This document shows positions 3,989 to 60,800 of a DNA stretch of 64,000 nucleotides, piece after piece. The stretch is from Mytilus edulis (Eukaryota), in contig NC_092353.1 of the NCBI RefSeq assembly GCF_963676685.1, forward strand, positions 17,918,001-17,982,000. The letters run 5' to 3'. The stretch's first letter is position 1, and each line of letters opens with the position of its first letter. The notes under the pieces are model-generated. The model was given only the letters and a program-made list of their open reading frames with translations. It searched no databases and was not told the DNA's origin. The position numbers were made by a program, and so were the translations under genes.

Positions 3989-3995
3989 TATAAAA
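3989..3995 (+). promoter_or_regulatory. Candidate TATA box of gene 1
   Basis: ggcTATAAAAtc about 100 nt upstream of the start ATG. The background is AT-rich, so support is weak. Confidence 0.3.
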
Positions 3996-4090
3996 TCTCG
4001 CAGATTAATATAACACTTAAATAGTACTTTAAATGATAAACAGATACACATGCCAGTCTTAGTGTAGTATCGTAGTAGTTGGGTAGTACA

Positions 4091-4142
4091 ATGCATCACC
4101 TAAATATTATAATTGGAATATCTATAATAATCTGTTTTGCAG
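4091..4142 (+). CDS. XPNPEP2: Gene 1 exon 1 (signal peptide)
   Basis: ATG...TTT GCA G|gtagga encodes [17 protein letters not shown]. Phase 1 joins exon 2 (AG GCT GTT CCT) to give CFAEA-VP, matching gene 2 CCAEA. Confidence 0.75.
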
Positions 4143-7100: not shown

Positions 7101-10100
7101 CAACCCTCCCCCTATACCTCTAACCAATGTAGAAAAGTAAACGCATAACAATACGCACATTAAAATTCAGTTCAAGAGAAGTCCGAGTCTGATGTCAGAA
7201 GATGTAACCAAAGAAAATAAACAAAATGACAATAATACATAAATAACAACAGACTACTAGCAGTTAACTGACATGCCAGCTCCAGACTTCAATTAAACTG
7301 ACTGAAAGATTATGATTTCATCATATGAACATCAGGCACAATCCTTCCCGTTAGGGGTTTAGTATCATACCATCATAACATATATGAGAAGAACATAACC
7401 CGTGTCATGCCAACAACTGTTTTTAGAATAAATGTGTTTAGTTCCGATGCAAAGACCTTATCAGTGACTCAATATTAACGCCAAAATATGCAATCTTTAA
7501 TGACTTGACAACAGTATCGTAATTATATCCCTTCTTAATAAGTCTATTCAAAGGTTTTGTAAGTTTCTGAGGTGAATACTGACACCTTTGTGCTTTATAA
7601 AGAATATTTCCATAAAAAATTGGATGTGAAATACCTGAACGTATTAGAAGTCTGCATGTTGAGCTATATTTACGAATGATGTCTTTATACCGATGATAAA
7701 ATTTAGTAAATGTTTTGACTAGTTTGTGATATCGAAAACCCTGGTGTAATAATTTTTCAGTAATACATAAATTTCTCTCGTTAAAATCTAAAACATTGTT
7801 ACATACACGAGCGAATCGTACAAGTTGAGATATATAAACACCGTAGGATGGTGACAAGGGAACGTCACCATCTAAAAACGGATAATTAACGATAGGAAAT
7901 GAAAAATCATCCCTTTTATCACAAATTTTAGTATTCAGCTTTCCATTAGTGATATAGATATCACGATCGAGAAAAGGGCAGTGGTCATTGTTAGTATTAG
8001 CTTTATTTAAAGTAAGTTCAACAGGATAAATTTCATTAATATGCATACTGAAGTCGTCATTATTGAGAGCCAAAATATCATCCAAATATCTAAAAGTATT
8101 ATTAAATTTGTTTATCAGATGTTGTTTCGATGGGTCTTTGCTTATTTTTGTCATAAATTGTAACTCATAACAATAAACAATACAAAAACAGGTCCGCAAT
8201 AAGTGGTGCACAGTTAGTCCCCATTGGAATTCCGATAATCTGACGATATACGGAATCCCCAAAGCGAACAAAAATGTTATCTAGTAAAAATTCAAGGGCA
8301 TATATAGTATCAAAGCATGTCCAATTAACATAGTTTTTTTGTTTATTGCTACTAAAAAATGACCTAAAAGAGTTTGAACATATATATTCACATTCTGATT
8401 TTTTGAATGCCCATTTAATTAGGTTTGGGATTTTTTTCTTAATGAGAATGTATGAACTATTTGCCACTGGACGTTAAGCAACCAACAATCAATCAATGTA
8501 TAGGACATAGTCTTGGTATAAAGCTGGCATTTAAGGTAGCGCCTTCCTCATATTATTATTATTAATAATAATAGGTCAACAATAATCATTTACAACCGAT
8601 TTCAGGAGCATTGATACTTCAAGAGGTGCTCAGTTCGATACTCTATGTTATAAACGTTTGAACTTGACTATACATGTAGTACGTTCTTCTTAACCCATAT
8701 TTTAAGATTCAAGATGGACACACTCAAATGTCAAAATAAAGAATAGGACCTTCACCTTTGACTTTGACCTCAGTTGTCGTATCATATCCAAAGAATAATT
8801 ATTATTCCTTATTTTACGACGTATATATGGTTTATGAGTAACGTAAACAAACTGTTTAACACAGTTGACAAGAGGAATCATGCAAGTTGTCACTCCCTGA
8901 TATCTGACACAAACATATCCGTCAAATATAGCCGCGTCGGACAGCACGAGTAGACCCCGGCTCGGACCATCTCTTATTAACGCCATGGTCTAAATAAAAC
9001 ATAGTTCTTTAAAAGAGCTTAAGATTCCTATAGCATATCAAATTTATACCAAAAAAAAAGTAAAAAAAAAAGCATTGATTCGATTTCTCGCGTATAACTG
9101 ATTACCGATGAGTATATTTATATCGGCACGACTTAAGACAATCATGTACAAATGAACGTAGTAACCAATACATAACCTTTCAAGACTAGAGCTGGTCAGG
9201 TAGCACTTCCTCGTAATATCACATATTTGTGTAAAATGGAGATACAAAATATGTGCTACTTTTTTGTTAGTTTATCGTACAGGAGCCTATAATTCAGTGG
9301 TTTTAGTTTGTTGCTGTATACTCATATTATTTTTTCGTTTATTGCTTTCTACATCTACCAGGCCGTTAGTTTTCACGAATAGATTTCCATTTATCATTTC
9401 TGTCGGGCCCTTTATATCTCAAGGATTTTGTTCCGATTGTTGAAGGACGTACAATGACTTATATTGTAAACTTCGAAGGCATTTCGTATTTTATTTGAGA
9501 TTTTGTCATGGGTAAATTCGTCATTTTCGCAACAACAAAAAAATATGTTCAAAACCGGGACCCACACTATACAAATCCTTTTGAAAATGGCATAGTCCAA
9601 ATCAATAAAAAATAAAATGTAATCGAAAGATTACAAACTTAAAAATGTATTCCCCTCCTGAGTGAAACAAAATTAAACTTTATAAATTACGAAAATACAA
9701 TTCCTTGCTCGATGACATGGGAACAAGGTGACTGCCAATGCCCAGTGCCATGATTAATAACATAGACATATAATACATATTATATATCTCTCGCCGGTTA
9801 ATAATAAATTAGACTAGGAATTATCTATTTTTGAACGTTTTTGATTTACCTTAATTCAAACCCTCATTTATTTAAAAAAACAGAAAAGAGGGCGTTTAAT
9901 TAACTTTAATAGTCCGGTTTACTTTAATCAATGATTTAGTTATCAGCTATCAAACAACTAATAATGCAATCAGTTCATCCTTAACAGGTACGTTATTGTT
10001 TGTAAATTTTCTTTTCTAGATAATGGTAATTAGTCATACCTGTCGGTGTTCTTCATGGTAGAGATATTTTAACCATTTTCCCGCCACAATTTGCAAAACA

Positions 10101-16100: not shown

Positions 16101-19100
16101 TTTTTTTACAACATTTGTACTTGTGTGCAGCATTCTGTAGACAGAAGAGGCTAGTTTGAAAGTTCAGATTTCCACACAAATTTGTGTATCTGATTACCAA
16201 GATGTCACGAGTAACACCTATTCTCATATTATATAATTAGCCCCAGAAAAAAAAAGAAGAAAAGAAAGACTGAACTTAATATAATGTTTAGGATTGAAAC
16301 CATAAACACAAATGTTGTTTTGTCTTATTATTCAAACTCAATTATGCATTAAATACTGTGTAGAATATATAATTATCTTGAATGAATTTAAGAATATCTT
16401 AAACAATGTTAAAAGATATCCCATTCTTTGTATATGTTGTTTATGTTTTAGAGTGAATATCCATCAGATTATGATCTCAGAAGAGGATACATCTCAGGGT
16501 TCAGTGGCTCAGCAGGTCAGTAGTAGTTCTTCAACATTCGCCGGACTTCTAAGTGAAAATCTCACATGTGTTAGTTATAACTTTTCCAGTAGTTTAGATA
16601 TAATTTATTCATAAAAAAATCTTCATATATTAATGTCACCAAGAGTTTAAAAAATGATTGAAACCTTGCTTTATGTAATTTTGGGAAATATTCCACAATT
16701 TAATTGTGAAAGGTCAATGATTCAAAGCTACCCGGAGGATGTGAGAATGAACATATATGTTATGAGGTTATATTCCAACCATATATGATGAACTTAAATT
16801 GTTTTGAGGTAAAAAGCAGTTTATTAGTTAATAGTTAGAAGAAGATTTCAAAGATCTATTGCATATCTGTTTGCATACTGTCCTATAAAATGTTTATCAC
16901 GAGACAATAAAGCTGTAACATTGTATAATGAACAAATAAATCAACATCTGTATTTAGTTGTAGATCATCTGTCTGAGATATCTTCATAAAGTACCTACCT
17001 GTTAGACTGATATTCAAACAGACCACTTATTTGCTAATCGGTTTATTACAGTCATAAAGTTTAATTTATGAAGTTTTTGAAGTGTTTTCAAATCTACTTA
17101 ATGAAAAAGTAGCTGTAAATTTTTATGATGTATTGTAACATAAAATACAAATTTGGACCCATTTAACATTAAATCGAAAACAAGCACGCTTTCCAAGTCC
17201 AGTATATTGTAGAATAGATTATTGTTGACAACTCACTTGCACTTATTATAGGACAATAGAATTATAAAGATGTGTTAATACTTTTGTTTAAGACTGTCTC
17301 TGAAGATTTTAATCTACTAAATTTGTGTTTTTGGAGAATCCTGCTGACTTGAGAACTGAAGAAAAAGACACATCTATAATTTTATATGTTTAAATATTCT
17401 AATAAAAATATCTACAGTGTGTCATGTACCTTTTTACATCACACAATTATGTTTAATTTAAACATGTTTATTTATAGTGGATTGGGAAACAGGTTTTGCA
17501 ACTTATATTAATCCCTTTCCACTTTGCGGGTGCAAGTGCTGCCTTGTAGCAGCATTAGCCTTCTCTTAAGTTATTCGAAATCTATGAGGGTGTCTTTAAA
17601 GTGCAAGAGATATGGCTCTCTCTTAACACGGGTCAGGCATTTATTGTCACCTTCCAACAGACTATCATCAATTCCTCAAAACCATACTTGCAAATGGTGT
17701 CAAGGGAGAGCAAAAAATTCAGTCCCTGAAATTTTCATCCTGGTACTGGAATCAAACCAGAAACCTTTGTGTTAGTAGTCTGATGCACTAACCACTACAC
17801 CAAGGCTCTACACAATTATGTACCAGAGCATATATAAAAAAGAAAAATCATAATTCACTTTAATACCCATCCATAGGCACACAATTTTAAATTCATGTCT
17901 CATAATGGAAAGTATACCAATGGGGAAATCAAAAGCCATAAGTTAAAGAAAAACTGACAAAACCTACTGACTAGCAAGTTCATAAAATGTTTCACAAACT
18001 AAATAGTTACCAACACGAATTGCTTCAAAATATAAAATGTACGTCAAATCAAAGATGTGACCCAGATTTTAAAGTGCAATGAATATGCAAGAGAAAGTAG
18101 GGCATGTTATCAGTGGACACATATTCTAATTTGAAAGGAGTTTTTAATATATATATATAATATAAAATTGAGAATGGAAATGGGGAATGTGTCAAAGAGA
18201 CAACAACCCGACCAAATAAAAAACAACAGCAGAGGGTCACCAACAGGTCTTCAATGTAGCGAGAAATTCCCGCACCCGGAGGCGTCCTTCAGCTGGCCCC
18301 TAAACAAATATATACTAGTCCAGTGATAATGAATGCCATACTAATTTCCAAATTGTACACAAGAAACTAAAATTAAAATAATACAAGACTAACAAAGGCC
18401 AGAGGCTCCTGACTTGGGACAGGCGCAAAAATGCGGCGGGGTTAAACATGTTTGTGAGATCTCAACCCTCCCCCTATACCTCTAACCAATGTAGAAAAGT
18501 AAACGCATAACAATACGCACATTAAAATTCAGTTCAAGAAAAGTCAGAGTCTGATGTCAGAAGATGTAACCAAAGAAAATAAACAAAATTACAATAATAC
18601 ATAAATAACAACAGACTACTAGCAGTTAACTGACATGCCAGCTCCAGACTTCAATTAAACTGACTGAAAGATTATGATTTCATCATATGAACATCAGGCA
18701 CAATCCTTCCCGTTAGTGGTTTAGTATCATACCATCATAACATATATGAGAAGAACATAACCCGTGTAATGCCAACAACTGTTTTTAGAATAAATGTGTT
18801 TAGTTCCGATGCAAAGACCTTATCAGTGACTCAATATTAACGCCAAAATATGCAATCTTTAATGACTCGACAACAGTATCGTAATTATATCCCTTCTTAA
18901 TAAGTCTATTCAAATGTTTTGTAAGTTTCTGAGGTGAATACTGACACCTTTGTGCTTTATAAAGAATATTTCCATAAAAAATTGGATGTGAAATACCTGA
19001 ACGTATTAGAAGTCTGCATGTTGAGCTATATTTACGAATGATGTCTTTATACCAATGATAAAATTTAGTAAATGTTTTGACTAGTTTGTGATATCGAAAA

Positions 19101-25100: not shown

Positions 25101-28100
25101 AATGGTCATGATGTTAAACTTGATGATTGATTGTTGATTATAATGGTCAATTAAGAGAGTCAGAAGCACCTGAAATTCGCAGGCTTTGAATTCACAAGCT
25201 TAGTGGGGACAGGCTAGTGATACAGTAGATATTCTGAGGCCCCTCTAAAACTTTAATATATTTTTTAAAATATAACACGGCCTAACATTAATCTTGACCT
25301 CGCTAAAACAGGAATTATTTGACACAAACTGTATGTTTTTGTATTTTATTATTTAGGTAGTTGATTATAGCACAATGCTGACAGAAGTACAGAATATAAA
25401 TACAGATTCTGGTATCAGTCAAGTATGGGTGGCATTTCAATGTAATTATGCTCTATATTCAGCTCTTAGTTCAAAGGTTGGTAGTCATTACAATATAAGT
25501 CTTGAAATATAATGGAATTTACAGAAAAGTAAAAGTTATCAGGCCCTGAAGAAAAGCCTTTATAAGGTATCATCCAAAAAACACATAATGCCAGCTAAAA
25601 AAGTTAAGTTTATTGCTCAAACCAAAGTAAGACTTTGATTCAGAACCAGATTTTCTGTTAAAAAAGGTTTAGGGGAATAAGTCTGTGGCAGTTATTGCTT
25701 TTAATGTCAGCAATTTTGAATATCTATACTATTAGATCAGAAGATTTAATTTTTGTTTGTTGCTTCTCATCCTACATCCCAATAAATTAATCATCATGCC
25801 TTTGAGTTCCAAAGGTACCATGCATAGTCACATTTCATAAAATTTGCCAGTCATAAAATCTTTTACAAAAATTCCTCCTACAACAGGTTACATATGTTCA
25901 ACCATTCTCTAAATGCTCACAATTTTGCAGATTATGTATGTGTATTTGAAATTTTTTTTTTTTAGAAAGTTCATCAAGCTAACACTCCAGCTGCCTTGAT
26001 AAAGACCAGAAAGAATGCAATAGAACAACAAGGCATGAGAAATTCACATGTAAGTTTTATTTCTTTCAAATGTTAGAAAGTTAAAACTGTTTATTCGTTT
26101 AATACTTTCAATTCTGAAATGTGTGCAATGTTTTATTATTATGATAATTGTGATGGGATAGGTTAAATTTTTGCAAATTTGCACATTAACATTCAAAATT
26201 AGCATTATTTGTTGGCAGTGATTTCTGAAGTTTGATAATTAATCTTTGCATTTTTGTACATTGATCAAATAGCACAATAATAAAAGCTTAAATTTTTGGG
26301 AATTTAAAGAACTTCTTCCTTGTCTGATTTATGAAGATATCATTTCAAATCAGAATTATTTATTTTGTCACTCATTTTAATAAAGAAAGATAGAAAAATC
26401 AAAGCAATTTTTATTAGAAATTTTCAAAATGTTGGCATGAATTATAATTTCTTCTGAAGTTAATTTTTGTGCTGCTTAGTTTTAAAATTTTGACATTTCT
26501 AGTACCAGATTTGGTAACAGCTGAACAAGAAGCAACAAGACATACAAATTTTGAATGAATGAAGATACTAATATATGCTGAGATCTGTCTGGGCATTGTC
26601 AGTTCTGCTTGTATTAATTGGAGATGGCAGCCAGCACATGTATTCTGTTTATTTCACATTTGCATCATTAGGAATGTTTGTTTAACAAAACAAACTGCCA
26701 TATTATTATTTTACTTTAAAAATATAGATATAATTCTTTATGATACTAAAATGGAAAAATACCAGATTCTATTTTAATGACAGCACAACCAAAGTATGTC
26801 AATTTTCAGATCTTTTTAGATTTATGACTTCTAGAATGACATTTGAACTTTTCAGAGATTTATATATTTTTAGAAAAGAGATGCAGTTGCACTGATTACC
26901 TTCATAGCCAATTTAGAGAAAACTGTAAGTACAAAAGACATGATTTTTGTGCATTCATTGCATTTGAGAGATAAATTTTTGCTTTTCAACCTGGGGTCAA
27001 AATAAGCAATGGTCCAGTGGTCGGAGACCAGTAGAATTTGCATCGGACCAGTAGATTTGGCAAGATGGTGATCTCGCCAACTTATAGAAATTTGTCAAGA
27101 AAAATCATTGATAGCATTGTGATCACACTTTTTTGTATCACACTTTACAAAAAAGTGTATCTACCAAAACAATTACATGGTACTGTGGGGTACCAAGTAT
27201 TATATTTTATCTTTTGTCATAAATGGGGGACAGTTAAGTGCAGCATAGCTATATATATAGGGATACAGAAGTGACGTAGGGTTTACCATTATTTCATTTA
27301 ATTATCTAACATTCATACACTAATATAAACTGTCTTTATGTAGGATCATTTCATAAACCTCGACCAGTGAAACATCTCTTTTTTGTATCTTTGATAGATG
27401 AAAGATGGTACAAAGGAATGGACAGAGGTATCAGCAGCATTAGACCTCAAAGAGCATAGATTGTAAGATATATTTGATATTCTAGATAGATCTGCTGCTG
27501 CAGGTTTAAGATATAGACTAAGATAACTCACATTTGAGGATGTTCCAGAAATTTGATTTTGGTAAATTTTTAAGTCTTCAGCTTTCATTTTTAAGTTGAC
27601 CATGGAGTTCAAATAGGTTTAAATGACAAATTATTGTATTAACTCAGATTTTGTTGTTGCCTGATACAGTTGTGGCTGTGGTTAACAAAAGGTCAAAGTT
27701 CTGGTTTAACTTGCAGATAAGTTAGTATGCATAATTATTATAAAGATATATACTGAATTACTGATCTGCAGTTCATTGAAAATGGAAATGTGAGTGCGAG
27801 CAGGGCATGGTGTCAACTATGGAAAAATATTCTTGCATATAAATAGCTATGGGAATTTCCTATAACTTTGAAAAAATCTTCACCTTGACCTTATATATAT
27901 TGTCACAGAATGTGACTGATAGAAGCCTGTTTCCTTTATGTTTTTTTTTTTTCATATTCACATGAACATATTGTATTGTGTAAATTCTAAAGAGGATTGA
28001 TAAAATGATGTATGATTATTTTTCAATTTAGATCTCAAGAAAAAAACCGAGGTTTGAGTTTTTCCAGTATTTCAGCTGTTGGTAGTAATGGAGCCATTAT

Positions 28101-31100
28101 TCATTACCACCCGTCTGCAGACACAGACAAAAAGTTATCTCTCAATGAAATGTATCTTCTAGATTCTGGTGGTCAATATTTGTAAGTTATTATTTTATTT
28201 CCAGCAATGCTGAACATAACAGAGGTTTAAGTTTTCCAAGTATATCTGGAAGTGGACCTAATGGGGCAGTTATACATTATTTTCCGACACCAGCTACTGA
28301 TAGGAAATTAAGTGTTGATGAAATGTATTTGTTAGATTCTGGTGGCCAGTATTTGTAAGTTAGCTTTGTTCTAATGCTGACTCTGACCACATATAATCTT
28401 TATCATTAAAAGGACAGCTTCTTTCTGTTTGCTACAATCTTAACTTTCATGCATTTTCAGACTCTGATTTATTGCTTTATTTTGTTCAGCTGAAATGACT
28501 TTTTCTTTCACTGCTGCACTCGGACTGCTTATATTTTCCTGTCATACATTTTTTTTTCATTCTTCAGATCTTAAACAATTGTTTCTTTTATTTCTAAAAA
28601 TTCATAATGATAAAAGTCTTGACAACTTATTGCAGAAAGATAGAATGCATTGTTTTTTTTGACAAAATTAATATATCATTGATGGCATATATTTTAAAAG
28701 TTTACATATTAATGCCTTTTCATAAGTTCCAATGATGGTAAAATGTTTTTAGTGGCTAAACAGGAAAGACGGGTTACATAAGAACAGTATTTTGAAATTT
28801 TCGAGTTAGTATTTAAGTATTGCATGTATATCCAAGATAAAAAGTAATATGAATGTACAGTAGCATGAACTTAGTTGTGAATGTAACAATTCTCAAATGG
28901 AGTTACTACCCTTTGTACCTTGAAATATTTTCTAATAAAAAACATAGATGACACAAGTATCCATTAGTTTCATATGAGAGGAATTAAACTTGACATGGTT
29001 GTATGGCACATATTTATTTTATTTCACATGTGAAAAAAATGATAGCGGCTATCCTTTATAACTTAGAAATGGCCTGTATAGAGGATTGAATAGAAGGGAT
29101 GTGTACTTATTCATGACACAAAATATTTCTCCCAAGTTAATTAAAGCTAAGAAACAGTATCTTAATTGCTGCTCTTCATTTTAATTCACAATATTTTCAA
29201 CAGAAAGTAAAAAATCACAAGTTTTAAGATGACCCTTAGCAACAGTAGGGCTAATTTCATTTGATACTCTCGAGTTAACTTTACTTATTCAGGTTTCAAC
29301 AAAATGATTTTACTTGAACCACTCAAGTTAACCCCTCGTACCCTGGTTCCAACCCTCAACGAGCCACGGTTAAACTCAAGAAACTCTTGAATGACATCAA
29401 ACCAATGAGAATATTTTATTTTTTATGCTTGGTCAGGGCCTTACCCTAGAGTTACTTAGAGTTGTTCCGAATATCAACTCTTGTGCGTTCACTTGATAAT
29501 CTATTAACTCTGAAGTCGATTGTAGAGTTTCAAGTGAACTCGACCTAGGAGAAAGTCTTTGTTAGATGTTGATAATATTACTTCTGTACATTGAAGACTG
29601 TCACAAAGGGGAATAGTTTGTAAATGTGCCTTACAATTTATGATTTCTCCACTCTGAACACATATAATCTTTATCATTAAAATAACAGTTTCTCTCTGTT
29701 CACCATAGACTTTACTTTCGTGCATTTTAAAACTTTGTGTTACAGCTTTATTTTGTTCAGCTGAAAGGTCTTATTTTTTATGACTACTTATATTTTTCTG
29801 GCATACATTTATGTTTCATTCTTCCAATCTTAATGTTTAATTTATTGCTTGATAATATTCTTGACATCTAATTGCAGAAAGATAGAATGCATTGTTTTTT
29901 TGACAAAATTAATATATCATTGGTTGCATACAAGTCCACATTTGGACATTTGAAAAGTTAACATATGATAAATGCCTTTTCATAAGTTTCTACGACAGTA
30001 AAATGATTTTGTGGCTAAACATGAAAGACAACTTCACAAGAAAAATATTTTGGAATTTCAGATAATATTCAAGTATTGCATGTATATCCAATAGAAAAAG
30101 TAAAATGAATATACAGTAGCATAAACTTAGTTGTGAATATATCATGTATGGCAGTTAATTGGTTTTTGTATGCTGTGTAATTCTCCATTAGAGTTATTGC
30201 CCTTTGTAGCTTGAAACATTTTCTAATAAAATAAATATAGATGACACAAGTACCCATTTGTTCCATATGAGAGAAATTTTAAAAACTTAACATGGTTGTA
30301 TGGTACCTATTTGTTCATATTTCATGTGTGGAAAAAAAATCATAGAACTATTCTTTATAACTTAAAAAATGGCATGCAAAGAGGATTGAATAGACAATGA
30401 TGGAAGGGATGTGTAATTATTTATGAAACAAAATCTTTCTCCCGAGCTATTTAATATTAGGAACAGTATTTATTGTAAGTGGCTATATATTGTTTTGAAA
30501 AAATGTAATGATTGAATAAAAGATTAGAATATTCCATTATTTTGTAGGGATGGAACAACTGATGTGACAAGAACATTCCATTTTGGTTCTCCTACAGCAT
30601 ACCAGAAAGTAAGACATTGTCACAAATATTACATCTTTAATATTACACATAGTACTAGTTCAAAACTTATTCATTTTGCTTGTGGTCTCCGAGGTGGCTA
30701 AGTCATCTTCTTTTTTTTATGCCCCATTTATAGGCATTATGTTTTCTGGTTTGTGCGTCCGTTTGTTAGTCCGTTTGTTGCTCCCACTCAGGTTAAAGTT
30801 TTTGGTCGAGGTAGTTTTTGATGAAGTTGAAGTCCAAACAACTTGAAACTTAGTACACATGTTCCTTATGATATGATCTTTCTAATTTTAATGCTAAATT
30901 AGAGGTTTTTCCACATTTTCACGGTTCATTGAACATAGAAAATGATAGTGGGGATGGGGCATCCGTGTACTAGGGACACATTCTTGTCATAAGTAGTTCT
31001 ATCACTACCCAGTTAACTTTGAGGTTATGAGTTTGTACCCCCAATTGTGCTGGTGCACTTAACTCCAATCTTTAATTAACTAGCATTGTCAGTTTTCTTA

Positions 31101-34100
31101 TTGAAAGTCATTGCTTTCTCCAAGCACTCTGGTTTCCTCTATCCATAACAACTGACAGCCTCAAAATAGGCCAAAAATGGCGCTTAAAAGTTGCGTTAAA
31201 ACACCAACAATCAATTTATATTCCTTTTGCTTATGTTTGTGTTATAATGTTTTTTCAGATCTGTTTGACACCTTCTTTATGTTTTGAAAATAAATTGAAT
31301 TATGAGTATATCTTGTAATTCCTCATATGTTTATTTATAGTGAATATAAAGATATGTTATGGTTTTAAATTAAAACATCTATATGTTGATGATAATATTC
31401 CTTGATCTTGAAATGATTGATTTTGTAGGAGTGTTACACAAGAGTTCTGATGGGACAAGTAGATTTAGCTCGCATTTTATTTCCTAACACATTATATGGT
31501 AAGTTAGGATGTGACTTCCATCACAAAATTGTCACAATGTGAAACTTAAAATAACAATGTGTCTCTATATTGGGTTTATTTTAACCTTTATGTGAACTAA
31601 GTATGATAATTACAGTAAGATTAAAAGATTTCAATTAAAATATGAATGCACTTCTTTGTTACTGCAGGAATGTTACACTCGTGTCCTCATGGGTCAGGTT
31701 GACTTGGCCAGATTTAAGTTTTACAAGGGGCCCCATGGTCCCTATGGTGAGTTATGCACCTTGTTTGTACATATAGAAAAGCATGTATTTAAAAGTTTCT
31801 TCTGTTAACACCCATATATCACAACCATAGATAATAATCATACTAATAAATAACAGAAAAGAGTAAAATGAAATACCACACGACAGAGTCGAGGGCTGGT
31901 TTAATAACAACCATTTAATAATATTTATCATATATATATAGAGAATAATACATGGCAAAATCCGTATCATATGTCGTATCATCCCGAGACATCAATATCA
32001 GCCCAAGGGCCTTTAGGCCCGAGGGATGATATTGGTCGAGGGCGATACGGCATGTGATACGGATTTTGCCATGTATTATACGCTTTATCATATATTTCAA
32101 CAGAAGAGTATTATATTATATGAACTGTTTTCTGATCCATAGCACTGGGTTACCTTCAGTTCTACTTTTGTCTTGTTTCATAGGCCTTAAAAGAACTGCT
32201 CAATTACTTATCCGAAGCACCTGGGTTACCTTACAATTTGCGTGCTGTTGTTTTAAAAATATTTTGTTTATTATTGTATTAATTTGTGTGTTTTGTATTT
32301 TTCATAGTTGCATTTAGTGTGCCAAAAAATATGATAACTTGACGTTCGTGACGTCACATACAATGTGAAAACTCGACGTTCGTGACGTCACATACCAAAC
32401 AATGACGTCATTCAAAAAATTAAAAAAAGTAGGGGTGTGATAAAGGGTAGGGGTGTGATAAAGGGTATGCGATAAAGGGTGCGCATCAAAGTTGCGCGAT
32501 ATGGATTAAAGAGCAGGCTATTTATCACATATGCAAAACTACTGTATTTACTACTAAACATATGATAAATTTCAATAAACACAACCATTAATAAATCAAT
32601 CAATCTCTTAATGCATGATACAAAATATCAAATAACATGGATACATAAATTAACATGGCATATCAAGTAGACCCTATTGTGCCAATTGATTAAACTGCAA
32701 AAATCACACAACAAACTTAACCTAAAATGCCATCCATGGGCATACAATTCAGAAGAAATAATTTCATTCTAATTCATAAAATCATCCGACTGAAATTATA
32801 TTTTTGATGAATTGAAATGTTGTCTTTTCATCACACCCATTGTCTTATTATGTTTTGGGGTCATTCATCAAAATGAAAGGATGTGTTGTTTTTTTGTTTT
32901 TTTTTTTTTTAAATTTGTTCAAATGAAGCCTTTGTATATAACTTATTCTTTTTTTTAAATTTTGCATGATATAACCTTAGATTGTGAGGGTAGAAGTAAA
33001 CATGTAAAATCTATTTAGAATGTACCATGCTTGAGTGAGTTAGTGTTTGCATGGTTTGATTTCATGTATAGTTTATTTATAATTTAATATAGATGTTAAA
33101 GTGATGTAACTAGTGTGGTATGTTATATACTACAATTCTCCAATATGTTATGCATCAGATTATACAGCTAGATGTCATTAAGGGAACAAACAAGGATATT
33201 ATAAGTTTTACATTTATAATAGTTTGTAACACAATTTAGAATAAGGCGTTGCTGCAAACATTTTGGAGTCTTGTAGTTTTCCCTTTTTCGCTCTGCATTT
33301 TTTTGTGAAAGCAAATACTTAGAAAGTAATTGTGCATATCATGCTTATTATATTATGGTGAGGTTCAGCTCTTTAATTTTGAAAAAAGTTTGTTTTTGTT
33401 AAGAATTACAAACTTTGAGAAATGTCTTTTGTAAATGTATAAAAACTCAAAATATATAGGTAAGAAGCTAATTTTAAAAGGTGGTACCAAACACATTCCC
33501 TTAAAAAAATTTGACTTATTTTAATTTTCATAAAATTTTGACAAATTTTTACTTTAACCATAAGACAAAAATATGAATATTTCAAAAAAATTGAACCCAC
33601 ACTATATCGGAAAAGTTTCATTGGACAAATAACAGTTTGACTAACACCAATTTTGATTGTTAAAAGCTTTCTATTTCCTGAACAATAGAACGTAATGAAT
33701 ATTTTCAGCTGATTTCTACAGAGTTATCTCCCTGTAGTGTTATGTACCACATTTGTTGTGCATATTATATATCTGTAAAATGCAGCTCATTAGTTTGGAT
33801 TTTATCTAAAAACAATGTTTAAACAAATTATTAGTGATTATAAACCAGTTAATATTCTCAATAATTCTATTAAATCCGGAAAATGAAAAATGTTGAAAAC
33901 AAGTAATGAATGGGAGATAACATTGGTTGTTGTGGTTTTACATACATTATCTCCCTTGTATATCATTTATTAATAATAACTAGAAAAAATATTCCAAGTA
34001 ACAATAACAAAATAACTTTTTATTTATTTAGAGCTATAAAATTGAGAATGGAAATGGGGAATGTGTTAAAGAGACAACAACCCGACCATAGAAAAAAACA

Positions 34101-37100
34101 ACAGCAGAAAGTCACCAATAGGTCTTCAATGTAGCGAGAAATTCCCGCACCCGGAGGTGTCCTTCAGCTGGCCCCTAAACAAATATATACTAGTTCAGTG
34201 ATAATGAACGCCATACTAATTTCCAAATTGTACACAAGAAACTTAAATTAAAATAATACAAGACTAACAAAGGCCAGAGGCTCCCGACTTGGGACAGGCG
34301 CAAAAATGCGGCGGGGTTAAACATGTTTGTGAGATCTCAAACCTCCCCCTATACCTCTAGCCAATGTAGAAAAGTAAACGCATAACAATACGCACATTGA
34401 AATTCAGTTCAAGAGAAGTTCGAGTCTGATGTCAGAAGATGTAACCAAAGAAAATAAACAAAATGACAATAATACATAAATAACAACAGTTAACTGACAT
34501 GCCACCTCCAGACTTCAATTACACTGACTGAAAGATTATGATTTCATCATATGAACATCAGGCACAATCCTTCCAATAGTTTATTTTTATAATCATAGTT
34601 TGTTGTTGCTAATGCAAAAACCAGCACATTTTAGTTAAGTTCATAATATGAAGATCAAATCATATATCAAAATCTCATGTATTTCATTTTAAAACAAAAA
34701 AAACATGTATTTGATATTGTATAAAAAATGTAATTAGCCTGTAATAGTTTGACTACACTGTCACCAAGAATACTGTACAGTACATAACACATGAATTCAA
34801 AACATTATTTCACTTTTACAGAGGAGAAACATAATCATACCTAATATTTGTTGTCAAAGAAAAATTTAATCAGTTCCCTTCCTTGACTTTGACCTGAAAA
34901 GTTTTTAAACTATGATACCTATATCTTGTTACTTTAACATTTGGTTGCGTTTTGTGGTTTAAGTTGAAAAAAGAGGCAGTATAATATTCACACTGTGTTC
35001 GTTGTTTTACACTGCCTTCTATAATGTGTTTAAGTTGACATTGAAAAAGTCAAATAAGAAAAAGGAAAGTCGCTAAACAAATGGCAAAATGAAAAAATTT
35101 AACACAGACGTCAAACGAATGGAATTGTTTCTGTAGGATCAATTTTGAGCTAGAATGCATTAAGGATAAATTATTAGCACACAACATTTTTAAATATCTG
35201 TGCATAGTACACTTCAATTACATAACATTCAAGTTTTAAAGCTTTATTATGTCGAGATTACTACTTCCATATTAATTATTTTTAGGACGTGAAATTGATG
35301 CAATAGCCAGAAGACCATTATGGGATGTAGGTTTAGAATACAGACATGGCACAGGACATGGTATAGGGTCATATCTCAGTGTACATGAAGGTAGGTTTAG
35401 AATACAGACATGGCACAGGACATGGTATAGGGTCATATCTCAGTGTACATGAAGGTAGGTTTAGAATACAGACATGGCACAGGACATGGTATAGGGTCAT
35501 ATCTCAGTGTACATGAAGGTAGAATATATATCTAACAAAAATGATCAAAAAATATTAAGTTTTAACCAGTTCCAGATTGTATGATGAAAATTGATTATCC
35601 ATATATAAATGAGATGAATAAGATGAATGGAAAAATAGATTGAAAAACAATAAAAAGATGAATTTAAAAAATATGCTTCTTTATGCAATGCTTGAGCATG
35701 CATTAAACATTAAGGAATTTAAGATAAGGTGGAGAAAAAGAACTGAGACTTTAAGAACTATTTTTTTTTCATTTGCCACTAAACACATAGAAAACTCTAT
35801 TTACTAGATTTCCAATGATAATGTTGTACCGGTATATTATTTTATTATTAAACAGGTCCAGGAAGAATTTCATTATCTCATGCCAGTTTTGATAGTGATG
35901 AGAAGCTGGATGAGTTCATGTTTTTCTCTGATGGTAAGTCCGAATGTCTTATATAGATATAGGAAAATGTGGTATGAGTGCCAATAAGACAACTCTCCAT
36001 GCAAGTCGTAATTTGTAAAAAGAATACCAATATAGGTGAAAGTATAGCCTTCAACAGAGAGCCTTCGAACACACCTAAACAGCAAGGTTTAAAGGGCTCC
36101 CAAAATGACTAGTGAAAAAAACAATGGTTTAATTTATATACAAAATGAGAAACACTTATGAACCACTTCAACTAACAGCTACCACTGAATAACAGTCTCC
36201 TGGCTTTGGACAGATGCATAAAAATGCAGCAAGTTTAAACGTTTTAACAGGCGCTAACCTTCACCATAACCTGAGATAGGAGTGTAACATTACAACATAA
36301 ATAAGTTTGTTTGAAAAATGTTTTACAATAATTTACACCATAAAAGACAAATTTGAGATAATAAGTTTAACATATACAAAAAAATGTATTCATTTTCAAT
36401 AAAATTGAGAATGGAAATGGGGCATGTGTCAAAGAGACGACAACCCGACCATAGAAAAAAACATATATAATTTTATAAAAACAATATTGGTAGGTTGGCA
36501 TATATATGCAACATGTTAGAAATTAATGTAATGTTGAAATATATACATTATTGTCGAGCCTGTAACTTTTGTTGCAGAAAGCTCGACATAGGGATAGTGA
36601 TCCAGCGGCAGCGGCGGCGGTGTTAGCTAACTTCTTAAAAGCTTTATATTTTAGAAGGTGGAAGACCTGGATGCTTCATACTTTGTACATAGATGCCTCA
36701 TGTTACGAAGTTTCTGTCAGTCACATGTCCAATGTCCTTGACCTCATTTTCATGGTTCAGTGACCACTTGAAAAAAAAAGTTCAAATTTTTTGTAATGTT
36801 GAATTCTCTCTTATTATAAGTAATAGGATAACTATATTTGATATGTGCGTACCTTGCAAGGTCCTCATGTCTGTCAGACAGTTTTCACTTGACCTCGACC
36901 TCATTTCATGGATCAGTGAACAAGGTTAAGTTTTGGTGGTCAAGTCCATATCTCAGATACTATAAGCAATAGGGCTAGTATATTCGGTGTATGGAAGGAC
37001 TGTAAGGTGTACATGTCCAACTGGCAGGTGTCATCTGACCTTGACCTCATTTTCATGGTTCAGTGGTTATAGTTAAATTTTTGTGTTTTGGTCTGTTTTT

Positions 37101-45836: not shown

Positions 45837-48800
45837 ATGATGGAATACATGTGGATAAGCTGTGTTTTATTGGTCGTTTGTTGTGCAGAAGCAGGTGAGG
45901 TTTATAAAGATGCTATACCGATTAAAAAAAAAAATCATTTCAAATCTTTAATATATTTATAGCATGTGACACAACATAACTAAATAAAAATAAAAAAAAT
46001 ATCAACAAGATCATTAATATTCATAGTTAAAGTAAATATTTCAAAAGTCTCCTGTCCTCACTGTTTTGAAATGGATCATAGCTTATTTACCTGAATGTGT
46101 GATCCTGGGTTGAGTATACATGAATATGTAATTTTATCTATATTATTTTAATTTGTAAAGTGCATATTATCATATAAAAATTCAAAATAAACCCTATTCA
46201 AATAAAATTAAATCTAGATATTTAATTTAAAGAATGAAGTCACGATAAACATGATAAAACATAGCTATATTAAAGGTTTTGTGTTGTTGGGTTGTTGAGC
46301 TTTCCCCCCTTAAATGCATAGAAAAATGTTAACTGTAATTTTATCTTGTTTTAATTTTGCAAATTGAAATTGATAGAAGAAATTAACTTTTTTGTACTAT
46401 TTTATTAAAATTGATTTTTTGCTGAAGTGAAGTCATATAAAACTGGGACTATTAATAAAAGTAGTACATTTTGTACATGTATCTTAGTACAAGTATAAAG
46501 TTTAGAGTAATAAACTTCAAAAGTCTAACGCTTTCTCACCAAGTTTCCGCAATAAGAAATAATAATAAGCCACACTGTTTTACAAAGTACAGGAGTCACA
46601 AAGTGTTTTAGTGCATTATTTATGTAATAACAAATGATATAAATCAATGCCTTGGTACTGGCAGATACATGAAGGAAAAAGTTTCCCTAATTAGAGACTT
46701 CTTGCATGTTTTGTAGTGAACATTATTATTTACCTTGTCAGAATCCTGTTTTGTACTAGTAGTTAGGCCACTATTAATTTATATTGCGTAATAGTTATGA
46801 CAAATTCAATTTTTTACAAAACAATATTCTACACAAAATCTTTTTCATTGAGATTGAAAATTAAATGAATTAAATTCAGCATAAGCTTTAATAAATAGGA
46901 TATGTGGTATGACTGCCAATGAGAGACTCCACAAGAGTTGGTTCAAATGATGTTGATTTAAACAACTGTAGGTCACCTTCAACAATGGGCAAAACCCATT
47001 CCTATTCTAGTCCCCAACATTACCAAATGTTCACAATATCTTTTTTTCATTTGACATTTCAATATCCTTTGAGTAAAAAACAGAAAGAAAATATTGAAGA
47101 TCTACAAATGCATACAAGATAAGATAAGATGAAAAACAGAAAATATATTGCATGGAGCCTGGTTTAATATTTTAACCTTCCCTTTTTCTGAAAATTTGCA
47201 AAGTTCATTAAAATTTTCTCAGAAGGTCCTGTAAATTTATCACAATGAAAAAACATGAATTATGACTGTGTTATAGTAATGAGTGCAAGCACCTCTACTA
47301 AATGTAATGATGATAAATGTAGATCTAAATAGCGTAACAAATGTAGAAAAGAACAGGTAAATGTACATGTTGTGTATGTAAAAGATGATGGAAACTTTTG
47401 TCTAAAGGTCAAATGAACACAATTATTGTTTACTTTTGACGATGATTTTTTGGAATGCTTATGATGATAATTCTCTCTATGATAATTTCTCTTGAAAATC
47501 AATTGGAAAATCGGAATAAAACTTTATCAGGTAAGAAAATTGGTTTACATTGTTTTCTTATATAACTTGAAAGAATTTAAGGGAAATGTTAAAATTTGTA
47601 TTTCACTAAGAAGAAACCTGTTGTGTAATACACCAATACAAAAACATTTTTTTTTATGGATGCTAAAATGATTACTATTAATTATGCAGTTATTTAACAA
47701 TTTATATAAAATAGCATGATTAAACCTTACATAAACTTCAGAAACTGAATTATGAAAACTCATGACTAGAACTGAACAGCTAAAACTTTTGTTAAAAGTT
47801 TTTTAATTATTTTATTATCGCAACAGAATTTGTCAACAACCATGAACGATTTAAGAGACAGACCAGCATTAAAAGTATGTCACCAGATGATCGTCCAAGT
47901 TGCAAGCCTGGAGCAGTATGTAGATTTTTATAGATAAATCTGATGTTTACAAATACAGTCAAGTTACAGATCTATGAGATCTCACATTATGTTAAACAGT
48001 TTATTGACCATAATTTTATTACCTTATTAGATCAAATGTCTCTTGGCTGTTTTTATTGGAATTTTTTAAATATTTAAAAAAAAATATACAAGGACAGACT
48101 TTTATTTGATTAATTCATTTTTTTTATTGCATTTTACAATATATAATATGCATTGTTGCTAACATTATGAAAAAATGGTTCGACAGTCTTTAATTCCAAT
48201 GAACAGTCAGTTTTATTCTTTTTAAGTTGGTCTAAAGCAGTGGCAGTGGTTGTAGTAATCACTTTTAATATTGAGTTTGTTACACTTTAAATAATGTTAC
48301 ATCATAAACACAATATCTGTAAACTTTAGTTGTTAAAACATCTTTATTCTAATTATAAAGTTGCCTCAGGATACATTTTAAATTGTGCATGTACATGAAG
48401 TTGAAATAAACATTAAGAATCAAGATTTTGTTTCAGAAGAATTTAATAAATTGAATTTATTTCTCAGCATTTTTTTAGACTTCAGTGCTAAATATCATGT
48501 GGACCCATTTTATTTTTGATCCAGTTGCAATTTTAAATTTCATGGAAGCATGAATGAACCCAATTAACATGAGTACTTTAAAAGGGGTTGTTTTTTTGTT
48601 GTTTTTTTTGGGGGGGGAGGGGGAGTTTGTTCGCAGAACACAACAATATTCATGAATTATATTTTGAGTGAAAAGTTTGCATTGAAGTTGCCCCCTAAAT
48701 AATGTTTACAGTATGTTTATACCTATCTTCATGTATATTAACAGCAAGTTCCACTGGTAAGAGTTGATTCATCACAAAGACTATATGATCTGAGACAAGA

Positions 48801-51800
48801 GTTTAATTCCAATGGTGTCAACTTACAAGGGGTAATAATTCCATCAGAAGATGCACACCAGGTATGTTTTTTAGGAATAAATTATACAGTGTACATTGTG
48901 TAAAATTATAGCATTTCAAAATTTGACCATAAAAATACAAATTTATTATTAACTTTTAAAAAAAAACTGAATTTGATATTGTCCCAGAGATGATCGTGAG
49001 CTATTTGAAAGGATATTTATATAGAGAATTTGAAGAAAATAACAGCATCATTTAAGTCTTGTTTCAAGCTTTGATTAAGACAATTAATTTAAAGGAAAAA
49101 AATATAGAAGGTAAAATATCTTCATACAACACTATAAATGTATAAAAATAACTATAGCCAATCTTATATATTTGAAGGACAGATAGTTAGTGGTCAGTTG
49201 TAATGACAGTAGTACTGTTAAATAAGAACATTTATTATTCTAATCAAATCCATTGATGGGCAACATGACATGTACACATACAACAATACATCATGATTTG
49301 TAACAGAAAAAAACCCATTTTTTTATAAAATTGAAATGATATAATATAATATTAAAAGTTCAGACAGATGTTATTATCTTCATTGTATATAAGTCACATA
49401 CATTTAATTCCAGGCAGGACCTGAGAACTGTACAATCATTATGATTATCATTGTTATGACATATATTAATTGACATTCTGTCTAACATCTAGACACGTAA
49501 TTATAAAGTTTCCTATATATTTACACATTATATAAACACATTACTTTGGTAAATAACCAAATAATTTTGCCTCATTTGGAAAATATGAAAAATTAAAACA
49601 AATACTGTATCTCCTTGAAACAGTTCTTTGAATGCTGAACAACTAGTAGTAAAATGTTGTTCATCTTCAACTAGATTTTCTTACAAATAAACTCATCATA
49701 GATACCAGGATGAAATTTTCTTATTTATGCCAGACGCGCATTTTGTCTACAAAAGACTCATCAGTGACGCTCGAATCAAAAAATGTTTAAAAGGCCAAAT
49801 AAAGTACGAAGTTGAAGAGCATTGAGGACCAAAAATTCCTAAACGTTTTGCCAAACACAGCTACGGTAATCTATTCCTGAGGTAGAAAAGCCTTAGTTTT
49901 TCAAAAATTCAAAGTTTTGTTAACAGTTAATTTATGATTATGAACATATCAATGATAACTCAAGTCAACACAGAAGTGCTGACTACTGGGCTGGTGATAC
50001 CCTCTGGGAAGCCTTTGGTCTCTTTCTATATGTAAAGTTTAAAATACCTGTTATCATTATTCTGATCGAAGCAGTTACTTTTTGCACACATACCTATATA
50101 TTGATGAATACTATGTTGATTAATTGATTTTGTTATGTTTGTTTTTTGTGTTGTGGGTCACTGATTTATTAATGTGAGTCCTTCTTCTTTTATCAATACC
50201 ATAAGTAACCATACAAGATGCCAAATTACATCCCTTGCACTTGAATTTTTGTTGGGAAAAGTAAGGCTTGTTTTAATTTTATGTATATTGTGTTTTACAC
50301 ATATAAAATTGAGAATGGAAATAGGGAATGTGTCAAAGAGACAACAACCCGACCAAATAAAAAACAAAAAACAACAGCAGAGGGTCACCAACAGGTCTTC
50401 AATGTAGCGAGAAATTCCCGCACCCGGAGGCGTCCTTCAGCTGGCCCCTAAACAAATATATACTAGTCCAGTGATAATGAACGCCATACTAATTTCCAAA
50501 TTGTACACAAGAAACTAAAATTAAAATAATACAAGACTAACAAAGTATGTCTAGAATTAAGTACAAAGGGCTCATGAACAAATTAATTTTACATGTTATC
50601 ATCCTGAGGTGCATGCAATTTTTGGCAAATGAAATAACACATCCATATATCAATATATTACAATTTTAGAGTGAGTTCCCAGCAGAGTATGATAAAAGAA
50701 GAGCCTATATCTCTGGATACGATGGATCACATGGTAAGTATACAATATATTACGATTTTAGAGTGAGTTCCCAGCAGAGTATGATAAAAGAAGAACCTAT
50801 ATCTCAGGATTCGAAGGATCACATGGTAAGTATACAATATATTACAATTTTAGAGTGAGTTCCCATCAGATTATGATAAAAGAAGAGGCTATATCTCAGG
50901 ATTCGATGGATCACATGGTAAGTATACAATATATTACAATTTTAGAGTGAGTTCCCAGCAGAGTATCAGATGAAAGAAGAGCCTATATCTCAGGATTCAA
51001 TGGATCTCATGGTTTGTATCAGATTATTGTTCTGATTGTTGTAGTGTAAATTAATAAGAATGAAATCTTATGTTTGCCTGTCTAATATCAGGGATATAAA
51101 TTTACAAATCGGAAATGATTAATACCCTCAGTAACTAGTCTGAGGACACAGTTATTGCCCTTTGGGTTTTTGTTGTTTACAAATATAGTTCCAAGTGTGA
51201 TCGGTGTATAACTTGTAATTTTTTTCACATACTTTCCCAATTTATTTTTTGATATTTTATGCATGAAATATTAGGTATAGGGATGAAGTTACATGTTTGG
51301 GTGCTGAATATTAATGTTAAGAAGGGATTTGGCCTAATTGAAAAAGGTAAAAACATAGATTGTCTGAAGCTGTCAAACTGAATTTAAGAGCCAGTGCATA
51401 GACTTTTGTTGTCTACCCTTTGATCAGGTTGTTGTCTCTTTCACATATTCCCAATTTCCATTCTTAATTTTATATGCTATAATTTTGATAATATTTGTTC
51501 AGATAGTAGTACACTACACTGTAAAAATCTTTTTGAGAGCATAAGAAAAAGGTAAATTTTATTCCCTACTATCATAGGCTGATGACCTGGCACCATGAAG
51601 ATGATAATAATTCATATAATGTATCCTTTTGATAGGTTTAGCTATAGTATTGAAGGACAAAGCTGCACTATGGACTGATGGTAGATACTATACCCAGGCT
51701 GAGAACCAGTTAGACTGTAACTGGATACTTATGAAACAAGGTTAGAATGCCTTCAAATTTATTTTTAGTTGTTTTGAGTAGTTGATTACATAAATAGTGG

Positions 51801-57800: not shown

Positions 57801-60800
57801 TTGTTTTAATTTCAACATTTGCATTTATACTATCGTCATAACCCAAAAGATAGACATGCATTATTTCTGTGCATGCATTTAAAGATCCTGCAGAAAATAA
57901 AATCTTTACCTAAATATTTGGCAAAAGTGACTACCTCTTGTTTGGTCTTTTGAATTTTTTATTTTTATTCTCATTTTGTATGCAGATGTTATAGATTCCC
58001 AAAATCCTCCACCTCTTTAGGTAAGAATCAGTAAATGTAAATAAAACCCTTCTTCCATAATGGATAAACCTCTTATGGGTCATTTTTTTGAGGGCTCATA
58101 CATAATTGGTTGAATGTTTATGATTGTTTTAGGTGAAAAGTGGTCAGTTTCCTGTTGCAACTGAGCTATCTGCAGCCAACCAACTGGACTCATTCAGAGG
58201 GTGAGTTAATAGTCTTTGTCATTTAATCTACTTTTCATCCTTGTTTATCGTGACTGCGACTTTGCGACAATACATCTCTCGCTGCTTGTAAACATTTGAA
58301 AGAGATATTGTTTTCTTTTTGAATTTATATTTTTGTCAGTGAAGTAGCCGGCACTTGAAGCCACCGTAAATGGCGGATTTCTGCCAGCTAGCAGCTTCAA
58401 TGGAAAGCCCTGGTGTTGTTGTCCATGTAGCATTGTTTGTGAAAAGTATATCCTCTGTTTTGTCCTTTATATATGAAGAAGTCTAAAATTTCCATTCTCA
58501 ATTTTAAAGTCTAAAATCCATATTTCAGAAGAGAGATCTACAACAGAGGTACCAGTTTCCCAACCCTGTCAGCTTACGGAACTAATGCTGCTATCATCCA
58601 TTACATGCCAAGTTTGTCTACAAATGTAGAGATCAAAACAGATAACATGTATCTTCTGGATTCTGGAGGACAGTATCTGTAAGTACAAAATAATTAAAAA
58701 ATCTACTGTGATGAAATTTAAACATCCATTTTATTTAAACTTGTTTAGTAGTTGTTTTGAATTTAAATTCTTGTATTAATGCAAGTCATTGTTTTGTCCC
58801 GGAAGCTCTTTACAACAGAAAAATAGTATAAAGATAAATTCCTGGATTCAGAATGAATACTACCTTACTTTAGCAGAGATAATGGAGTTTTTATTGTTAT
58901 TTTTTCCTCAGGGATGGAACCACTGATGTGACACGTACATTTCATTATGGAGTACCAACGAATCGTCAGAAGGTACATAATTTTGATAATCATTTTTCAA
59001 ACAATCATATTGAGTGTATTGTTGGTCATTTTTTGGAGAATTTGTATAAGTTTAAGATTAGAAATGCTGTGAGAAGCATATACAATAAATAAAGTTCTCA
59101 ATATGAAGAACGACACTAGAATTGTTGTTTCTTTGAAAATAAAAAAAAAAGAATGGTTCCTATATTTTATGCTGTTTCTGTGTTATTTATACTTCATCAA
59201 ATGATTTCTTTAAATTAAAGGTTTTATTTGTGTCATAAAAGTACATATCATATGACATCATTTGAACTACTGTACATACTAAAAATTGAAAATTTATTTT
59301 GGACAGGAATGTTACACTAGAGTTCTGATGGGACATATCGACCTGGCTAGATTTATTTTCTATAAAGGAGCATATGGACCCTATGGTAGAGAAATAGATG
59401 CTATAGCCAGGAGACCACTGTGGGAAGTTGGACTAGACTATAGGCATGGGACTGGTCATGGGGTAGGGGCATATCTAAGTGTGCATGAAGGTATTTATTG
59501 GTTGAAATATATTTTTATGCCCCACCTACAATAGTAGAGTGGCATTATGTTTTCTGGTCTGTGGGTTCCATTCCTTCGTCCGTCCATTCGTCCTGCTTCA
59601 GGTTAAAGTTTTTGGTCAAGGTAGTTTTTGATGAAGTTGAAGTCCAATCCACTGGAAACTTAGTACACATGTTCCCTATGATATGATCTTTCTAATTTTA
59701 ATGCCAAATAAGAGTTTTTACCCCAATTTCACGGTTGACTGAACATAGAAAATGATAGTGCAAAAGGGGCATCCATGTATTTGGGACACATTCTTGTTAA
59801 TGGGATGTTTTTATGTTTGATACTTAAATTCTTTGGGTAAACAGACGTTAAGCATCCAACAATCAATCAATCAATCTTTGGGTAGACCAAATAAATAGTA
59901 AATATTTACTCTTGAAAATCTAAGAAGACAAAACATTTTCTATATCAAGACAATTTTTGTATTGCATTGCATCACATGAAAAGCTGTAAAAAAAGTAAAA
60001 AAAGTCTCAAATCAATGAGTATAAGGAAATTCATTGAAAATAGACCAATACATTTTTAGCTCACCTGGCCCAAAGGGCCAAGTGAGCTTTTCTCATCACT
60101 TGGCGTCCGTCGTCCGTCGTCCTTCGTCCGTCGTCGTCGTCGTCCGCCGTTAGCTTTTACAAAAATCTTCTCCTCTGAAACTACTGGGCCAATTTTTACT
60201 AAACTTGGCCACAATCATTATTAGGGTATCTAGTTTAAAAATTGTGTCCGGTGACCCGGCCAACCAACCAAGATGGCCGCCATGGCTAAAAATAGAACAT
60301 AGGGTGTAAAATGCAGTTTTTGGCTTATAACTCAAAAACCAAAGCATTTAGAGCAAATCTGACATGGGGTAATATTGTTCATCAGGTCAAGATCTATCTG
60401 CCCTGAAATTTTCAGATGAATCGGACATTCCGTTGTTGGGTTACTGCCCCTGAAATGGTAATTTTAAGGAAATTTTGCTGTTTTTGGTTATTATCTTGAA
60501 TATTATCATAGATAGAGGTAAACTGTAAACAGCCAAAATGTTCAGTAAAGTAAGATCTACAAATAAGTAGTCAACAGGACCAAAATGGTCTGTTGACCCC
60601 CTTTAGGAGTTATTGCCCTTTATAGTCAATTTTTAACAATTTTTCGTAAATCTTGGTCATCTTTTACAAAAATCTTCTCCTCTGAAACTACTGGGCCAAA
60701 TTAAACCAAACTTGACCACAATCATCATTGGGGTATCTAGTTAAAAAAATGTGTCCGGTGAACTGGCCAGCCAACCAAGATGGCCGCCATGGCTAAAAAT

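Follow-up and report, generated by a model that had tools for sequence, protein, structure and literature searches.

To our knowledge, nearly all known clusters of mutually exclusive exons are old and fixed, so that whether exclusivity exists at birth or is acquired later, and whether the spacers between such exons are born short or shrink, are still open questions. Duplication of a whole exon with its splice sites is reportedly, since a study of 2002, one source of alternative exons. In a 64-kb stretch of Mytilus edulis DNA (the window), exon maps place two tandem genes for Xaa-Pro aminopeptidases (M24B), both on the + strand, and exon 4 of gene 2 is written there four times in succession. 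A first-pass annotation of this DNA had proposed that the four copies are mutually exclusive from birth. The question raised by the locus is whether that is so, or whether the array does something less tidy.

Results

Exon 4 of gene 2 is a tandem array of four copies

TRF resolved a repeat with a period of 92, 4.0 copies and 92% matches at 50646-51013 (score 632). Its coordinates agree with the four 92-bp units of the first-pass annotation, in which copies a to c each comprise an acceptor, a 64-nt exon and a donor. The array lies on the + strand and begins with the original 3′ end of intron 3 (50642..50669). Copy a (50670..50733; 64 nt, open) differs from the majority of the four copies by F17Y; it is followed by spacer a-b (50734..50761, GTAAGT...TTTTAG, with one private base), copy b (50762..50825; 64 nt, open; A12T and D18E), spacer b-c (50826..50853), copy c (50854..50917; 64 nt, open; A5S, E6D and A12G) and spacer c-d (50918..50945). 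Copies a, b and c each have a TTTTAG acceptor and a GTAAGT donor. The spacers, 28 nt each, differ from one another at 1 position, and are thus nearly invariant as originally described; the peptides of the copies were likewise as first given. Copy d (50946..51011) is 66 nt long through the insertion of CA after nucleotide 21, which puts it out of phase so that a stop is reached as exon 5 begins, and it is followed by a weaker GTTTGT donor in the 3′ flank of the array (51012..51027).

The reading frame through the array is set by exon 3 (48745..48861, + strand, 117 nt), which ends in phase 0 after an ...EDAHQ motif and matches XP_071133429 (P0004) and XP_071133428 (P0006), and by exon 5 (51636..51740, + strand, 105 nt), which lies in the Creatinase_N region and needs phase 1 at its start. 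Copies a, b and c are homologous, of equal length and phase (64 nt, phase 0-1) and carry their own AG/GT splice sites, as expected of mutually exclusive exons that arose by tandem duplication; copy d departs from this pattern. A second frame is open in each copy, and the length of d is divisible by three, but use of this alternative frame was ruled out by the phases of exons 3 and 5 and by all homologs.

A DNA search of the 1.37-Gb genome to which the window belongs gave 2 matches, namely the array, as one genomic copy, and exon 4 of gene 1 (16452..16515, + strand), a paralogous exon in single copy. Exon 4 is also single in the paralogs L009 and L010; no exon-4-like match was seen in paralog L011, and a search with shorter proteins gave no further gene 2 fragments among 62 matches. 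In L010, another aminopeptidase P paralog, a 6.4-kb array of a 42-nt satellite (2259-8684) lies directly upstream of exon 4. In the window, a truncated common repeat element of a family also found at 6797, 18159 and 34034 lies at 50303-50545, about 120 nt upstream of copy a.

The gene product is an aminopeptidase P by family

The protein encoded by gene 2 (P0004) aligned to human XPNPEP1 (PDB 3CTZ) with an E-value of 8e-139 and to C. elegans APP-1 (4S2R) with 7.5e-105. Creatinase_N, Creatinase_N_2, Peptidase_M24 and C-terminal domains and the metal-binding motifs of aminopeptidase P (M24B) are present, as judged from Pfam on the window exons (Peptidase_M24 above the cut-off, Creatinase_N below it), from the precomputed domains of P0001 and from the alignment to 3CTZ. 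By family, the product is thus an Xaa-Pro aminopeptidase with putative cleavage activity. Exon 7 of gene 2 matched a Mytilus trossulus protein at 96%, and the cluster of that protein has 10 members from four Mytilus species. The three Pfam domains and the C-terminal domain are shared with XPNPEP1 and APP-1; unlike these, the mussel protein has a hydrophobic N-terminal leader and a hydrophobic C-terminus, which suggest a membrane or secreted form.

Exon 4 aligned to residues 40-60 of human XPNPEP1, in domain I, and the equivalent of Glu41 is kept in all copies. In the accessible text of PMC5774706, Glu41 bonds His498 and is reported to be dispensable for catalysis; because it is not required, functional differences from copy to copy are likely to be small.

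Database models of gene 2 contain two alternative first coding exons (45837-45894 and 47455-47530), one signal-peptide-like and the other hydrophobic, so that different targeting may result. The 184-nt exon of gene 2 (59307-59490) corresponds to a 79-nt and a 105-nt exon of gene 1, which indicates that one intron was lost in gene 2 (or gained in gene 1). An equivalent of the 70-nt alternative of gene 1 was not seen in gene 2.

Only single use of copy a, b or c keeps the frame open

Among the 10 possible choices of an acceptor with a donor, the frame was open for a-a, b-b and c-c alone; composite forms with several copies, copy d alone and skipping of exon 4 all stop early. Each of a to c is therefore open by itself and closed in joint inclusion (3 of 10 choices open), in agreement with the point that the non-triplet length leaves only single use open. 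In-frame read-through of several copies was rejected, since every multi-copy form hits a stop.

With a splice-site matrix built on the window's own sites, the donors of a to c scored 10.8 and exceeded 36 of the 38 other donors of both genes; the donor of d scored 6.5 and exceeded 12. The four acceptors were modest and nearly equal, at ranks 7-10 of 38. Elsewhere in the two genes no intron is shorter than 233 nt, with the exception of those inside two older duplicated exon pairs in gene 1 (23 and 169 nt). Published steric limits, as given in the accessible parts of the sources, are a donor-to-branch-point distance below 50 nt in human (PMC5740500, PMC7969005) and about 40 nt in C. elegans (PMC4165533). 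The whole spacer, at 28 nt, falls below both, in agreement with the view that the spacers are too short to splice, with the reservation that the human limit of about 50 nt may not be molluscan. Docking/selector pairing was sought in six duplex tests, each compared with 20 rough shuffles, and did not stand out: 1 to 16 of the 20 shuffles equalled the observed duplex, and the best result (1 of 20) came from one of the six tests.

The copies are young and the spacers were probably short at birth

The copies are identical at 58-60 of 64 nt (91-94%), as against 101 of 150 nt in the older exon pair of gene 1 (15a/15b; 28032..28354, + strand, 150 nt each with a 23-nt spacer). The array is thus, as read from its sequence, a young four-fold tandem duplication of a whole exon with its splice sites. 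The comparison with gene 1, whose pair is annotated as alternative in three Mytilus species, supports the youth of the array in the first-pass description of a young version of 15a/15b. Every copy carries 2-3 private changes in a star-like pattern, and translation of the majority sequence gives the exon of M. trossulus (3 models) and of M. galloprovincialis (VDI39803), with M. coruscus 1 residue off.

Each spacer joins the donor end of the former downstream intron to the acceptor end of the upstream intron, the acceptor half deriving from the intron 3 end at 50642..50669. Being built from both intron ends, the spacer would have been 28 nt since birth. Both flanks have TAT(CA) in common at the join, which suggests a microhomology-mediated duplication. 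The 92-bp unit would have been duplicated at this short TAT(CA) microhomology, and unequal crossing-over would then have expanded the array.

Copy c had been noted as closest to exon 4 of gene 1, and it is, with 15 differences against 18-20 for the other copies. The reason is that c agrees with gene 1 in all three of its changes (chance about 0.001). It was nevertheless rejected as the ancestral exon, since the majority form is that of the sister species. Two of the three changes of c recreate a 10-mer in the 3′ flank of the array (null 0.0045, post hoc), and the insertion in d recreates a 9-mer at the same place in the flank (null 0.017, post hoc). Since the double change of c and the insertion in d both match the flank at 51016-51027, templated mutation between imperfect direct repeats is possible, and local templating is a plausible source of the changes in c and d. 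Gene conversion from gene 1 is another candidate source of the changes in copy c; the common tract is just 15 nt, and the flank 10-mer explains two of the three changes equally well.

Amino-acid changes between the copies are conservative

The annotation had further stated that exon differences are mostly non-synonymous. The count itself holds, at 8 non-synonymous to 2 synonymous changes, but it is no sign of selection: the ratio is what neutrality predicts (expected synonymous share 0.20-0.25, p 0.5-0.7), and the density of changes in exons and spacers (10/256 and 1/84 nt) is not significantly different (Fisher p=0.30). Neither contrast alone shows selection, and positive selection on the exons is unsupported. 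All 8 of the 8 amino-acid changes, however, have BLOSUM62 scores of at least 0, where 40-44% is expected by chance (p about 0.001, post hoc), and for copies a to c alone the count is 6 of 6 (p 0.004-0.007). These tests are post hoc with n=8, and two of the changes of c may be one templated event. The changed positions are also variable ones among homologs (mean entropy of 2.13, against 1.14; p 0.005, a value inflated by the anchor, which fixes three positions); this set comprised 97 distinct segments from 121 non-gene-2 proteins, an anchor being present in 128 of 189 proteins. The residues of F17Y, D18E and D18N, three of the eight, occur in 0 of the 97 homolog segments. Together, the post hoc tests lead us to infer mild purifying selection on several copies.

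Protein models contain copies a and b

In the M. edulis RefSeq set, XP_071133429 uses copy a and XP_071133428 uses copy b; copy c is in none of the gene 2 protein models compared. We treated the RefSeq isoforms as not independent of the window assembly. Majority-type reads would have 2 differences from a, 2 from b and 3 from c; they would thus tie between a and b and miss c, the exact RefSeq pattern, so that the isoforms are no proof that two copies are used. Copy b also stands letter for letter in a second M. edulis assembly (CAG2241100-102), whose gene 2 differs elsewhere from the window. Taken together, the two isoforms and the recurrence of b suggest that several copies are used. One M. 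galloprovincialis model (P0007) starts in exon 5, that is, after exon 4, which hints at frame trouble at exon 4 in that species, as if transcripts were frame-broken.

An RNA run fits retention of the spacer

Four RNA runs were examined, with depth tables dominated by intronic repeats. X24 (raw reads, 6% read) and X17 had zero depth at exons 3, 4 and 5, and in X16 exon 3 alone was covered, by a contig extending into the introns. Exon 4 was covered in X18 only, a set of contigs whose RNA type is an automatic guess and which may come from pooled animals. Record 17 of X18 spans exon 3 and record 24 spans exon 5, with depths of 7.58 and 7.77 (through-path 7.6-7.8). A contig of depth 10.5 lies over a position of spacer a-b, which shows a further difference at 50753, and a contig of depth 19.3 lies over copy b and has at position 34 the base of the majority; exon 4 is represented by one majority-type node. 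The intron bin after the array was empty, and the slight depth before the array was fully explained by record 17.

Six pieces, 2 listed with coordinates and 4 reconstructed from incomplete tables, reproduced 9 of the 9 tested bin depths within 0.02, together with both distance-to-end values (37 and 33). The piece lengths of 28, 84, 68 and 28 are those of a k=31 graph of identical copies with the spacer kept. Five other tested cases, including a single exon, spacer-less joins and the window haplotype, gave other lengths, except for a mixed single-plus-four-copy case with the same graph. The depths agree with a path spliced through exons 3, 4 and 5 together with an 84-nt loop that retains the spacer; they require no spacer-less loop, in this one run whose contigs drop rare forms. 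Exon-spacer-exon retention reached a depth of 10.5 against 7.6-7.8 for the through-path, and a longer array, through pre-mRNA or traces of genomic DNA, could also produce such a loop.

In the majority exon, 21 of the 38 31-mers are absent from the array of the window, so that X18 likely represents another haplotype with tandem majority-type copies. A tandem array is thus likely to be present in another animal, its spacers are likely not excised, and the RNA likely retains about 1.4 spacers per transcript. For productive transcripts with a single copy, X18 is compatible with a share from near 0 (two copies) to about 55% (four). Exclusivity is likely leaky, enforced more by frame and putative decay than by clean exon choice; the apparent abundance of stop-bearing forms in X18 fits poorly with efficient decay. 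A spacer that cannot be excised blocks joins from copy to copy, but it leaves the acceptor of one copy free to be used with the donor of a later one. The proposal that the copies are mutually exclusive from birth is therefore unsupported as worded.

Discussion

The best explanation of these observations, which we hold at about even confidence, is a young duplication that varies between animals and acts as a leaky forerunner of mutually exclusive splicing. The spacer of 28 nt would be too short to excise, and copies would never be joined directly. The spliceosome may select acceptor and donor with some independence from each other. When both belong to the same copy (a, b or c), the product would be a full-length enzyme that differs by 1-3 conservative residues in domain I; when they belong to different copies, the exon would be a composite that retains spacers and soon reaches a stop, and such transcripts would be decayed. 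Translation, now or in the past, presumably extends to more than one copy, and the conservative nature of all the changes would follow from this. A fuller version of this reading is possible, and we put it forward tentatively: a mutually exclusive cluster still segregating, whose haplotypes vary in the number and the sequence of the 92-bp unit, with spacers unsplicable from birth, several copies serving as enzyme variants under purifying selection, wasteful spacer-retaining transcripts persisting, and the 23-nt pair of gene 1 as the end state.

Much of the same evidence could also be read as one working exon with passengers. In this account the copy number varies almost neutrally, protein comes from a single copy (probably a or b), and the other copies decay, beginning with d. 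The 8:2 ratio is neutral, d is frameshifted already and has the weaker donor, c is missing from the models compared, tie-mapping can explain the RefSeq pair, the full original intron end lies upstream of a only, and the acceptors are all modest (rank 7-10 of 38). We nevertheless regard this account as rather unlikely, given 8 of 8 conservative changes distributed over all four copies, the open frame and strong donor (above 36 of 38 others) in a, b and c alike, and the unchanged copy b of the second assembly. At the opposite end, a clean cluster with exactly one of a, b and c in each mature mRNA since birth would agree with a spacer under the steric limits, a non-triplet exon, annotated isoforms with a and with b, and a working 23-nt pair in gene 1. 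It is an improbable reading in view of X18, which fits a retained-spacer loop deeper than the spliced path while the adjoining intron flanks are without depth; nor did any docking/selector pairing rise convincingly above shuffles, and the start of P0007 after exon 4 would be expected of frame-broken transcripts. The array might finally be an artefact of assembly or polishing, a single exon written four times. It was assessed from the assembly, and a perfect repeat also occurs in gene 1 within the window, but the 2-3 private changes per copy with every amino-acid change conservative, the recurrence of both copy b changes in the second assembly and the fit of contigs from a separate study to an exon-spacer-exon junction make this highly implausible.

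The repeat in gene 1 is a perfect 3 x 64-nt tandem repeat of an exon 3′ end (35327-35522), either a very recent duplication or an assembly error. It places two new strong donors (35390 and 35454; 10.9) before the old weak one (35518; 5.5), and the normal exon length is kept by the first donor only. Gene 1 also has a second older duplicate pair (31429-31746) with a 169-nt spacer, and two forms of this pair are found in Ostrea edulis and Crassostrea virginica models as well. Both forms of each gene 1 pair occur in isoforms of M. edulis, M. trossulus and M. galloprovincialis. Under the reading of a leaky forerunner, the 23-nt-spacer pair is a plausible end state of an array such as that of gene 2.

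The variants of the enzyme probably have little effect in themselves. What the array offers is a spacer length set by the size of the duplicated unit, single bases that tell the copies apart, and haplotypes that seem to differ; with these features, the cost of the arrangement (retained spacers and decay) and the route to clean choice become measurable with RNA-seq and long reads. We found no paper on this locus in a search of the freely accessible literature.

Exclusion by steric limits and by frame in tandemly duplicated exons is already known. The accessible text of PMC4165533 describes five mutually exclusive clusters of C. elegans with introns too short to splice, including egl-15 5B/5A (14 nt) and a 30-nt case. 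As far as that text goes, these share with the mussel array homologous tandem exons, a spacer below 40 nt and a spacer apparently never excised, and decay of frame-broken forms acts as a second safeguard, as proposed here. The C. elegans clusters are, by the same text, fixed and experimentally validated, whereas in the mussel the copies are 91-94% identical, one of four is dead, haplotypes likely differ and spacer retention is apparently common. Among human clusters, the available portion of Hatje et al. (PMC5740500) gives a donor-to-branch-point distance below 50 nt in 9% and a non-triplet length in 60%; the mussel array shows both properties. The human clusters were, according to that portion, validated by bridging junction reads for each exon, whereas the mussel array is known from sequence, models and contigs. 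With clusters governed by competing RNA structure of the Dscam type, as treated in the accessible part of Ivanov and Pervouchine (PMC6071210), the array has in common the duplicated exons and intron pieces; it differs from them in having no convincing docking/selector pairing and a duplicated intron piece of just 28 nt. The mussel array differs from known cases in its youth, its four self-contained units, its likely haplotype variation and its apparent leakiness. Compared with old, fixed pairs of duplicated exons, it is a candidate for the earliest, still-variable stage.
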